64,000 nt of DNA. Source: Eledone cirrhosa (lineage: Eukaryota). Where the stretch lies: NCBI GenBank assembly GCA_964016885.1, contig OZ024746.1:6944001-7008000 (forward strand), written 5' to 3'. This document shows positions 38,521 through 49,700 of this stretch, one piece after another. The position numbers were made by a program, and so were the translations under genes. The notes below the pieces were generated by a model that saw nothing but the letters and a program-made list of their open reading frames with translations, was not told the origin of the DNA and made no database searches. Every line of letters starts with the position of its first letter. The stretch's first letter is position 1.

Positions 38521-38816
38521 CCCAAATAATCCCCCAAAATATATAGTGCCACATCGCCAGACTGAAGAGCAGATCGATAATGGGGTCAGGTCCATAACTT
38601 CTGTGGGGGACTCTGAGCCAATTCTCTGTGAAATGCGCATAACAGGTTGATACACAATAAAACATTAAATGCTTGTAAATGAAACTTGATCATTCTTATT
38701 AATATAGACTCTGCTTGTGCATTGATTGCTTGTTTTGGTACTGCCAACCAGTAATTCACTGAATCACACACACACACACACATATATATATATAGAGGCA
38801 CATACATATTTAGATG

Positions 38817-39198
38817 GAGGCACATAGCTTAGTGGTTAGAACATTGGCCTTGCAATCGAAAGGTTGTGAGTTCAATTCTCAGACCGGGTGATGTGTTGTT
38901 TCCTTGAGCAAGACACTTTATTTCACATTGCTCCAGTTTACTCAGCTGTAGAAATGAGATGATAGGGACTGGGGTCCCTATAATACCACTGCAAATTGGT
39001 TGTAGAGGTGCCACGGCAAAAAAGCACCCAGCCCACACTGTAAAGTGGACGTGTAGGCGCCACGGAAAAGCACCCAGCACTCACTGTAAATGAGGTTGGT
39101 GTTAGGAAGGGCATCCAGCTGTAGAAATCAAGTCAGAATCAGTTCCCGTCCCACCCTTGCAAGCTGGGAAAAGCGGACGTAAAATGATGATGATGATT
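38817..39198 (+). mobile_element. Full-length SINE family B with RTE-derived tail
   Basis: tRNA-like head, core, then GGTGTTAGGAAGGGCATCCAGC...GGACGTAAAATGATGATGAT as in the RTE 3' end. Confidence 0.85.
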
Positions 39199-39819
39199 AT
39201 ATGAAATGGTTCAGGATCCCGACGGCAGAGCTCAAGCTGTTTCAATGGCTATATCTGGACTAAATTAAATTTTTTTAACCTTTTCCTATTACCCACTCTA
39301 CTACTCAAAGTATCGAGTACTCTGGTGCATTATGGTCCACCTAGTTCCTTACCTCACTTCCTTCATTATACATATTTATATATATATAAATGTGTGTATG
39401 TGCAGGTGTGATTCAAGTGTTTTCATTAATCAAATCAATCCCAGTACTTATTTCAATCCAATGCTTATTTTATCGATCTCTATTTATCAAACTGCTAAGT
39501 ATTAGTTTTGAAAGTAACTCAACAATGGCTTATACACCAGTAAACATAATCACAGACTTAATTATATTCATTAAAATTAATTTCCAACAAAAGAAGTACG
39601 TTTGGAACACAACAAGTGAAGTTTAGAATTGAAATCGAAGCTTTCGCCACCCATCTTATTCCATTCAGTGGCTTTATACGCCTCATTATTAGACTATATT
39701 ATAGTAAAAAATATCATGGCAAAGCTACTATTTCTATTTCAATTCCAATTTCCAAGAAATTCTTTTTAAATTGTGATGAAATATGTGAAAATAATTAAAT
39801 ATATAAAATAAATAAATAC

Positions 39820-39867
39820 CTTCAGGTTGATAAAAGTAAACAAGCAAATTTTTCAACCTGTCTGTTA
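39820..39867 (-). CDS. CPSF1: CPSF160 exon
   Basis: VTDRLKNLLVYFYQPE; 48 nt, phases 1 and 1. Confidence 0.9.
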
Positions 39868-40290
39868 CTGAAAAAGAAAAACACAAAAATTTACATAAAA
39901 TGATAAAAAAGAAAATTTTCTTTCTTCAAATATATCTTGCCAAAGAAGATAGTATGATAAATCTCTTATATTTAGAATTTACTTGATAAGAAATCTCAGA
40001 TTTCTTTGTGAAATCTTTTCTCATGGTTTAATTATATTAATGTTTTGTTCATTTTCTTAATCACACTAATATTATGCTTTTTATACAAACATGAATGTTT
40101 TCTTATTGTTTGCAATATAGTCATTTTTACAACTGTGTTTCCATGCTAACATATTTAAAATCATTTTTATCAGTTTACATCTACTTTCCATATTAGCATG
40201 GGTTGACCATGTTGCCACAGTCTAAAAATAGACAGGTTGGAAAGACTTCATCTTACTCATACATTCCATATTTGGCATGGTTTCTACATC

Positions 40291-41377
40291 GTCTACCATA
40301 AAGTCTACCGTATAACCTATTACCTACCAACAAAACACAGGTCAACATTGTCTACCGTAAAGTCTACCGTATAACCTATTACCTACCAACAAAACACAGG
40401 TCAACATTGTCTACCATAAAGTCTACCGTATAACCTATTACCTACCAACAAAACACAGGTCAACATTGTCTACCATAAAGTCTACCGTATAACCTATTAC
40501 CTACCAACAAAACACAGGTCAACATTGTCTACCGTAAAGTCTACCGTATAACCTATTACCTACCAACAAAACACAGGTCAACATTGTCTACCATAAAGTC
40601 TACCGTATAACCTATTACCTACCAACAAAACACAGGTCAACATTGTCTACCGTAAAGTCTACCGTATAACCTATTACCTACCAACAAAACACAGGTCAAC
40701 ATTGTCTACCGTAAAGTCTACCGTATAACCTATTACCTACCAACAAAACACAGGTCAACATTGTCTACCGTAAAGTCTACCGTATAACCTATTACCTACC
40801 AACAAAACACAGGTCAACATTGTCTACCGTAAAGTCTACCGTATAACCTATTACCTACCAACAAAACACAGGTCAACATTGTCTACCATAAAGTCTACCG
40901 TATAACCTATTACCTACCAACAAAACACAGGTCAACATTGTCTACCATAAAGTCTACCGTATAACCTATTACCTACCAACAAAACACAGGTCAACATTGT
41001 CTACCATAAAGTCTACCGTATAACCTATTACCTACCAACAAAACACAGGTCAACATTGTCTACCGTAAAGTCTACCGTATAACCTATTACCTACCAACAA
41101 AACACAGGTCAACATTGTCTACCATAAAGTCTACCGTATAACCTATTACCTACCAACAAAACACAGGTCAACATTGTCTACCATAAAGTCTACCGTATAA
41201 CCTATTACCTACCAACAAAACACAGGTCAACATTGTCTACCATAAAGTCTACCGTATAACCTATTACCTACCAACAAAACACAGGTCAACATTGTCTACC
41301 ATAAAGTCTACCGTATAACCTATTACCTACCAACAAAACACAGGTCAACATTGTCTACCATAAAGTCTACCGTATAA
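40291..41377. repeat. 59-bp minisatellite, about 18.4 copies, built from a CPSF1 exon 3' end plus its splice donor
   Basis: Minus-strand unit TTATACGGTAGACTTTAYGGTAGACAATGTTGACCTGTGTTTTGTTG|GTAGGTAATAGG. Confidence 0.95.
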
Positions 41378-41397
41378 ACTTCCATCGGGCGAATATC
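41331..41397 (-). CDS. CPSF1: CPSF160 exon overlapping the minisatellite
   Basis: ctctcag|DIRPMEVYTVDFMVDNVDLCFV|gtaggt; compare [22 protein letters not shown]; phases 0 and 1 fit the neighbouring exons. Confidence 0.93.
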
Positions 41398-41459
41398 CTG
41401 AGAGAGAAAAAAAAAGAAAGAAAACATTAACAGAATAAATAAACAGTTCTCTTAACTGA

Positions 41460-42209: not shown

Positions 42210-42386
42210 CCTGCTCACTAATGACAATACTTTCAGCTCCTCTTGGTATCGATAGACAGAAACACTCTTTAGTAAATCTCCAGCCAAGATGATATTCTTT
42301 AATGTACTAAGGGTATGAATATAAATGTATGTATCGATGAAAGCTACACCAGACAGATCGTTGTCTTTCAATGTCCAAATATAAAG
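42210..42386 (-). CDS. CPSF1: CPSF160 exon
   Basis: LYIWTLKDNDLSGVAFIDT...YRYQEELKVLSLVSR. Confidence 0.95.
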
Positions 42387-45826: not shown

Positions 45827-46175
45827 CATCTAGTAGATCCTGTATGGCTGGATGACCACCACAACCACCATCATTACCACCTAGTAGATCCTGTATGGCT
45901 GGATGACCACCACAACCACCATCATTACCATCTAGTAGATCCTGTATGGCTGGATGACCACCACAACCACCATCATTACCATCTAGTAGATCCTGTATGG
46001 CTGGATGACCACCACAACCACCATCATTACCATCTAGTAGATCCTGTATGGCTGGATGACCACCACAACCACCATCATTACCATCTAGTAGATCCTGTAT
46101 GGCTGGATGACCACCACAACCACCATCATTACCATCTAGTAGATCCTGTATGGCTGGATGACCACCACAACCACC
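45827..46175. repeat. 51-bp minisatellite, about 6.8 copies
   Basis: CATCTAGTAGATCCTGTATGGCTGGATGACCACCACAACCACCATCATTAC. Confidence 0.95.
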
Positions 46176-46636
46176 ACCACAACCATCATCACTGTTTAAC
46201 GTCCATTTTTCCACGCTAGCATGGGTTAAACGTGTTGTCCCGTTGTGAGACAAATCAGATCAGGTGACTGTGTCTTGCTGATGCAGAACTGTTTCTGGCT
46301 TGGTTTCTACGGCTGGATACCAGTCCATTGCAGGGTTAAACCCCCAGCTATTACTGGTACTCATTTTCAGCTGAGTATACTGGAGCAACGTGAAAGTGTT
46401 TTGCACAAAATCACAACACACAACACAGGAATCAAACCCACAACATTATGATTGTAAGTCCAACACCCTTACCACTAAGCCATGTGCTTCCACATCCAAC
46501 ATATAAACCAGCATTAGAAACACTGACGTAAAATGATGACGATGGCAATGATGATGATATAAACATTTATAATTATATATTTAAACCAATAAAACACTTC
46601 CAACATATTAATGTCAGTGTTGAAGAAATTACTTAC

Positions 46637-48983: not shown

Positions 48984-49121
48984 CTAAATTAAACAGAAAA
49001 ATATAATAATTAATCACCATCATCATCACTATCATTTTTACGTCCATTTTTTTCCACGCTCGCATGAGTTGGACGAGTATCAAGATTAAAACAAAACAAT
49101 TGTTCCTGCGGAGTGGCCTGA

Positions 49122-49700
49122 CCAACTCCACCCCTGATAGTAAAGAGTAGGGAGGTGGCCCAGAGCTTGCTGCTGCAGGTTGACCAACTCCACCCCTGAT
49201 AGTAAAGAGTAGGGAGGTGGCCCAGAGCTTGCTGCTGCAGGCTGGCCAACTCCACCCCTGATAGTAAAGAGTAAGGAGGTGGCCCAGAGCTTGCTGCTGC
49301 AGGCTGGCCAACTCCACCCCTGATAGTAAAGAGTAGGGAGGTGGCCCAGAGCTTGCTGCTGCAGGCTGGCCAACTCCACCCCTGATAGTAAAGAGTAAGG
49401 AGGTGGCCCAGAGCTTGCTGCTGCAGGCTGGCCAACTCCACCCCTGATAGTAAAGAGTAGGGAGGTGGCCCAGAGCTTGCTGCTGCAGGCTGGCCAACTC
49501 CACCCCTGATAGTAAAGAGTAGGGAGGTGGCCCAGAGCTTGCTGCTGCAGGCTGGCCAACTCCACCCCTGATAGTAAAGAGTAGGGAGGTGGTCGAGGGC
49601 TTGCTCCTGCAGGCTGGCCAACTCCACCCCTGATAGTAAAGAGTAGGGAGGTGGTCGAGGGCTTGCTCCTGCAGGCTGGCCAACTCCACCCCTGATAGTA
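49122..49700. repeat. GC-rich 62-bp minisatellite, about 9.3 copies
   Basis: CCAACTCCACCCCTGATAGTAAAGAGTAGGGAGGTGGCCCAGAGCTTGCTGCTGCAGGCTGG. Confidence 0.95.

Follow-up and report, generated by a model that had tools for sequence, protein, structure and literature searches.

What becomes of a gene when the end of one of its coding exons, together with the 5′ splice site that follows it, has been multiplied many times over at the head of the next intron? The question is raised by a tandem repeat in CPSF1, an essential gene, within the window, i.e., the whole stretch of 64,000 nucleotides of Eledone cirrhosa DNA that was analysed. Outside mammals, the array serves as a clean natural experiment on how a donor is chosen, with 18 identical donors preceded by 47 nt of shared exonic context; since every wrong donor leads to the same stop and the context is identical, position is nearly the sole variable. 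If leakage to the later donors scaled with array length, repeat instability would bear on how much of a core polyadenylation factor is made. The single case in itself matters little, as the class to which it belongs is known from the literature and splicing of the gene appears normal.

The exon upstream of the array matches human CPSF1 (E 7e-17), and the gene product is identical to CPSF1 of Octopus sinensis (P0002) at 1424 of 1474 residues. The gene model, which was guided by the latter protein and extends past the window into the neighbouring stretches, comprises 38 exons and 37 introns over 53 kb, all of the introns GT-AG, and encodes an intact product of 1473 aa. Exon 32 matches the genome at a single place and the other two loci with the PF03178 (CPSF_A) domain are SF3B3 and DDB1, so that CPSF1 is single-copy within these searches. 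The exons around the array are, in window coordinates:

42210-42386, minus strand: CPSF1 exon 32 of 38, 177 nt, ending in phase 0, joined to the 67-nt exon in the contig of public run X1
41331-41397, minus strand: CPSF1 exon 33 (DIRPMEVYTVDFMVDNVDLCFV), 67 nt, phase 0 to 1
39820-39867, minus strand: CPSF1 exon 34 (VTDRLKNLLVYFYQPE), 48 nt, starting in phase 1

The acceptor of exon 33 at 41397 scores 14.2 bits, with pyrimidines at 17/17 positions; this and all other splice-site scores come from a matrix built from CPSF1's own 37 introns alone. Because exon 34 starts in phase 1, the first GT (41330) is fixed as the in-frame donor.

Tandem Repeats Finder reported a 59-bp repeat at 40286-41377 (period 59, 18.5 copies, 99% matches, no indels). 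In minus-strand orientation, its unit consists of the last 47 nt of exon 33 and the first 12 nt of intron 33, just as the first-pass annotation had proposed, and the coding copy is the first unit of the array. The same annotation had described an exon end and 5′ splice site amplified into about 18 identical donors. The intron-start 12-mer (GTAGGTAATAGG) does occur 18 times on the minus strand, with first bases from 41330 to 40327 in steps of 59 nt; behind each copy stand the 47 nt that close exon 33, of which the final copy has just 25. The donor TTG/GTAGGT (the slash marks the junction) is present in 18 identical copies, one authentic and 17 downstream. In the interval originally assigned to the feature, 40291 to 41397, the coordinate 41397 is where the exon starts, and the repeat ends at 41377:

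40291-41377, minus strand: minisatellite, 1087 nt, 18.4 units of 59 bp as assembled
41325-41333, minus strand: authentic donor TTG/GTAGGT, first intron base 41330, 6.2 bits
40322-41274, minus strand: the remaining 17 donors, identical to the authentic one, with first intron bases 41271, 41212 ... 40327
40357-41065, minus strand: single variant site (ATG/ACG), with ACG in units 6, 10, 11, 12, 13, 15 and 18; order MMMMMTMMMTTTTMTMMTM

Over the 1087 nt, the array differs from its first unit solely at one position, where seven units carry C instead of T (ATG>ACG) and the other 12 have ATG, so the units do vary only at this site, as had been noticed at first reading. A genome search with the exon and the first intron bases, in which one candidate region was scored and very common words were skipped, returned 18 matches, all inside the CPSF1 array. 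The variant site falls in the exon-derived part of the unit (window 41360), and repeat turnover could bring ACG into the coding unit, changing Met to Thr; the molluscan homologues compared have either M or L at that Met position.

The copy number might be a product of the assembly, with one or few units in the real genome, and the only contig on the exon is spliced and silent about the intron, while the run search turned up no DNA run of this species. We consider this very unlikely. The two states of the variant are interspersed (7 ACG, 12 ATG) and the 1087 nt are otherwise free of differences, which would be the variant-repeat pattern of a real minisatellite and not of random error, and which therefore argues against an artefact. 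The array also has a distinct truncated end, its contig (C6) is 102.6 Mb long and free of N over the surrounding 264 kb, and similar arrays are frequent in the genome.

The coding consequence of passing over the first donor is short:

41323-41325, minus strand: stop TAA on reading past the first donor (GTT GGT AGG TAA)

When joined to the native acceptor, all of the downstream donors (17/17) read ...DLCFVGR-stop, and with that acceptor the first donor is, as had been claimed, the only one to give intact protein. The companion claim, that every downstream donor brings in a premature stop, stands for the native acceptor but fails for two in-frame routes that can be drawn on paper through weak AG sites within the units. 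Five introns, intron 33 included, lie 3′ of the TAA; transcripts with a stop upstream of later exon junctions are NMD targets, and with four further introns downstream the stop-containing products would be such targets. On paper, the alternative products have the arrangement of AS-NMD, a stop upstream of later exon junctions.

This arrangement suggests a reading in which variation in array length would adjust the dose of CPSF1 like a dial: leakage to donors 2-3 or later would lead to the stop and to NMD, and would rise with array length. The 17 downstream donors, all of which match the real one and yield a stop with introns still downstream, speak in its favour. We nevertheless hold it to be unlikely, on the transcript, comparative and frequency evidence below. 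A wider form, in which the array is polymorphic, leakage to NMD scales with its length and repeat turnover thereby sets the genome-wide polyadenylation capacity of an octopod, so that the many junction arrays of this genome would form a length-tunable dosage layer, is distinctly improbable.

At 6.2 bits, the authentic donor is equalled or undercut by 9 of the 37 CPSF1 donors, at least 27 of the 37 being higher. All but two of the downstream donors (15/17) would produce an exon longer than 234 nt, the length of the longest internal exon of CPSF1. Three candidates were rejected. A donor 4 nt downstream of the authentic one (TAG/GTAATA, 5.2 bits) shifts the frame into a stop and is not the X1 junction, skipping of exon 33 gives an immediate stop, and RNA structure hiding the donors is not indicated by the fold of 271 nt (z +1.37), as 185 of 200 shuffles fold as well.

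Four runs (X1, X2, X3 and X14) of the 20 listed were compared with 41300-41458; none of the 20 has half of the query words, and they were mostly drawn in by microsatellites. A single X1 contig of 4,325 nt (depth 22.8) covers 41331-41398 without differences and follows an unbroken path from exon 32 through a single unit to exon 34. The repeated intron piece (41300-41329) has no contig in X1, which tells weakly against the dose dial, given that contigs drop rare forms and that NMD would deplete them. On 41300-41458 the runs X2, X3 and X14 were blank, and blanks prove nothing; together with the lack of any look-alike window, and hence of a sign of conservation, they likewise weigh little against a dial. 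The 47 nt ahead of every donor are identical, so a junction word cannot name the donor that was used. Frequent use of later donors would, however, be expected to carry the 12-nt intron piece into the words and to break the X1 path. As one contig of one run, X1 is evidence of presence, and the animal from which it came may carry another array length.

A different use of the units would be as alternative in-frame mini-exons, entered through AG sites that each of them contains:

41319-41346, minus strand: two low-scoring AG sites per unit, TTGGTAG at 0.0 bits and TAATAG at -2.6 bits

Joining exon 32 to TTGGTAG (route B) gives VIGYTVDF(M/T)VDNVDLCFV instead of the native exon, and splicing from donor 1 into the TAATAG of the following unit (route C) adds a second GYTVDFMVDNVDLCFV. 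Both routes are open reading frames, and TTGAC, which we take to resemble a branch point, lies about 19 nt ahead of the first AG. The units lack a credible acceptor, with 0.0 and -2.6 bits against the 14.2 bits of exon 33: these scores are matched or beaten by 23% and 37%, respectively, of 2552 ordinary intronic AGs of CPSF1, while real acceptors as low amount to 1/37 and 0/37. The tract of each unit AG contains 6 G against at most 3 in real acceptors, route B deletes an RD-x-x-P motif present in 8/8 molluscan homologues covering that stretch, and it is the native exon that appears in the X1 contig. We regard the mini-exons as highly improbable.

Minisatellites that reiterate a splice donor have been described before. 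In the human F7 gene, the first unit of the 37-bp VNTR of intron 7 spans the exon-intron junction, and according to Borensztajn et al. (2006; PMC1557585) normal transcripts are spliced at none but the first of the 5-9 identical donors, whereas in minigenes the next donor takes over once the first is mutated. The same paper lists human CBS intron 13 (15-20 units, two extra donors used), intron 2 of the interferon-inducible gene 6-16 (25 pseudo-sites, of which two serve in addition to the real site), human LMNB2 (10-15 × 100 bp) and human PDGF intron 4 (16-18 × 81 bp), the authentic site alone being used in the last two. In amphioxus, “mirages” occur in Adh3, the globins BflGb6 and BflGb9, troponin C and PGBD5, with units of 10-160 bp that are 81-100% alike, 3-6 of them in the globins and unstable in length in Adh3; according to the reports (PMC3087553, PMC3902484), these leave splicing undisturbed.

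F7 resembles the CPSF1 array in that a first unit across the exon-intron junction is followed by identical donors. The two differ in the make-up of the unit (4 nt of exon and 33 nt of intron in F7, 47 and 12 in CPSF1) and in the 5-9 copies of F7, known to be polymorphic and minigene-tested, compared with 18 donors from one assembly; unlike in F7, every later donor of CPSF1 meets the same stop with the native acceptor. CBS, 6-16, LMNB2 and PDGF share with CPSF1 the copy-number range and the reiteration of donors, but these are human genes, whereas the present host is a single-copy core 3′-end processing gene of an invertebrate; where CBS and 6-16 use two downstream donors, none was seen for CPSF1 in the X1 contig. 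The mirages come close in being tandem duplications of an invertebrate exon-intron boundary with a large exonic share and normal splicing, although their units are 81-100% alike and the 18 units of CPSF1 are identical save for one site.

On the three characters examined, the CPSF1 array belongs to this published class of exon-intron junction minisatellites: head-to-tail units within 10-160 bp (59 bp × 18.5, 99%), an end unit across a real splice junction that is backed by a homologue and the contig, and a normally spliced host mRNA that is still made, as its presence in X1 indicates. For the dose dial, these precedents cut both ways: CBS and 6-16 use two extra donors each, which favours it, while in F7 the choice is set by the position of the donor and not by the number of donors (PMC1557585). 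The literature searched, with most subscription journals outside its scope, yielded no cephalopod report of a splice-donor minisatellite, nor anything of use on CPSF1 and NMD.

The frequency of arrays in this genome was estimated from 864 kb, a non-random sample made up of 12 blocks of 50 kb picked by hand and the 264 kb that surround the locus; it contained 53 arrays (period 20-200, at least 3 copies, at least 90% matches, complex unit). When the CPSF1 exon 33 array itself is set aside, any given donor has a 0.24% chance of falling in the end unit of an array, or 0.10% for arrays of at least 10 copies and 0.03% for those of at least 15 copies at 95%. With an assumed number of 150,000 donors, some 360, 150 and 50 donor-spanning arrays, respectively, are expected. 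As a repeat, the array goes far beyond what chance would give; a repeat lying across a donor is expected in this genome, and an occurrence within chance expectation argues against a dose dial. Within CPSF1, two of seven such arrays touch a splice site against 0.61 expected (P(≥2) ~0.12), the probability that at least one of the other six would do so is 0.41, and enrichment at splice sites is not significant with n = 7 arrays.

The last partial unit is joined directly to another kind of repeat:

40160-40289, minus strand: diverged, 5′-truncated copy of the tail of an abundant dispersed repeat, matching positions 24-154 of a 157-position profile model (E 9.4e-12)

The full repeat, which is presumably a SINE with an RTE-like tail, was seen at window 38815-39205 and in about 20 other places of the window, where it starts with a tRNA-like head, contains 48-bp repeats internally and closes with a tail that runs out in ATG repeats; its tail has 124 matches in 264 kb. 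The direct junction would fit an array made by insertion of the abutting element, and the one ATTAAA in intron 33, at 40032, would fit an array that binds U1 and so protects the intron from being polyadenylated too early. In 4 of 53 cases an array directly adjoins the 5′ end of the tail, compared with 1.1 in shuffles, 28 of 1000 of which reach 4. One of the four is the CPSF1 array and two look by eye like the element's own internal repeat, and with one independent case left a link between arrays and the element is not supported. Neither enrichment at the ends of the element nor a target duplication on its far side was found, since no copy of the 59-bp unit follows its 3′ end at the locus. The motif A[AT]TAAA occurs in 28 of the 37 CPSF1 introns (1.9 per kb), so intron 33 is not special. 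We give hardly any credence to either form of this explanation. What followed base 12 of intron 33 originally cannot be recovered from this genome, and a local duplication with subsequent ordinary minisatellite turnover would be the simplest account of the origin.

The reading that we consider likely is that of a locus-specific minisatellite over the CPSF1 junction, of which the first donor is used almost exclusively, so that the array would be left close to neutral. A local duplication of 59 nt across the junction of exon 33 and intron 33 would have started the array, and slippage or unequal exchange would have enlarged it, leaving one interspersed variant. The strong acceptor 67 nt upstream would then let exon definition or oriented scanning pick the first donor, as in human F7, while the later donors would stay idle and any leak to them would be removed by NMD. 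Duplication as the origin, choice of the first donor and removal of leakage by NMD each seem likely to us, and the array is likely tolerated clutter of the kind known from human and lancelet genes. Several points weigh against this reading: its transcript support is one contig of run X1, where contigs drop rare variants, NMD depletes forms with the stop and the animal may have another array length; runs X2, X3 and X14 gave nothing; extra donors are used in two of the five human examples; and the authentic donor is only middling for CPSF1. The first-pass annotation had also put forward that array length tunes productive splicing or NMD, or that the array binds U1. Neither idea gained support from the single-unit product of X1, from a published class in which the first donor or the first few are used, or from a chance-level occurrence; since assembled contigs do not retain rare forms, which NMD would moreover conceal, both keep the small place given to them above.

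Other arrays were seen in and around the gene. One of 39 bp × 16.8 in CPSF1, just outside the window (L027:3388-4055; G000:C6:7011388-7012055), ends at a real acceptor; its unit consists of the acceptor region and a few exon-like bases, with the AG kept in 3 of the 17 units counted, the real site included. It is an older acceptor-side array in which most decoys have been lost. Two near-perfect intronic minisatellites of CPSF1 lie at window 49118-49700 (62 bp × 9.4, 134 nt from the nearest splice site) and 45827-46187 (51 bp × 7.1, 449 nt from the nearest splice site), the latter beginning at the 3′ tail of the dispersed repeat. One 64-bp unit is common to four separate arrays around the window (L018-L020, L030), so it is carried by a dispersed element. 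Elsewhere, at L082-L083 (G000:C15:5005615-5019103), there are two copies, spaced by about 10.2 kb, of both a 77-bp array and a 121-bp array, which suggests a local tandem duplication. For Octopus vulgaris, a repeat content of about 66% is given in the part of PMC13282606 consulted, which does not deal with arrays of this kind.

As the 47 nt ahead of all donors are the same, arrays of this kind can mislead gene predictors and short-read junction counts. Three predicted CPSF1 fragments of Mytilus edulis (P0009, P0013, P0014) repeat the end of the counterpart of exon 32, and a further predicted CPSF1 fragment (P0003, an ENA record) repeats its start, in each case with intron-like residues between the copies. 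Judged from these protein records, the four fragments suggest that junction duplications may have been read through by gene predictors in other molluscs.
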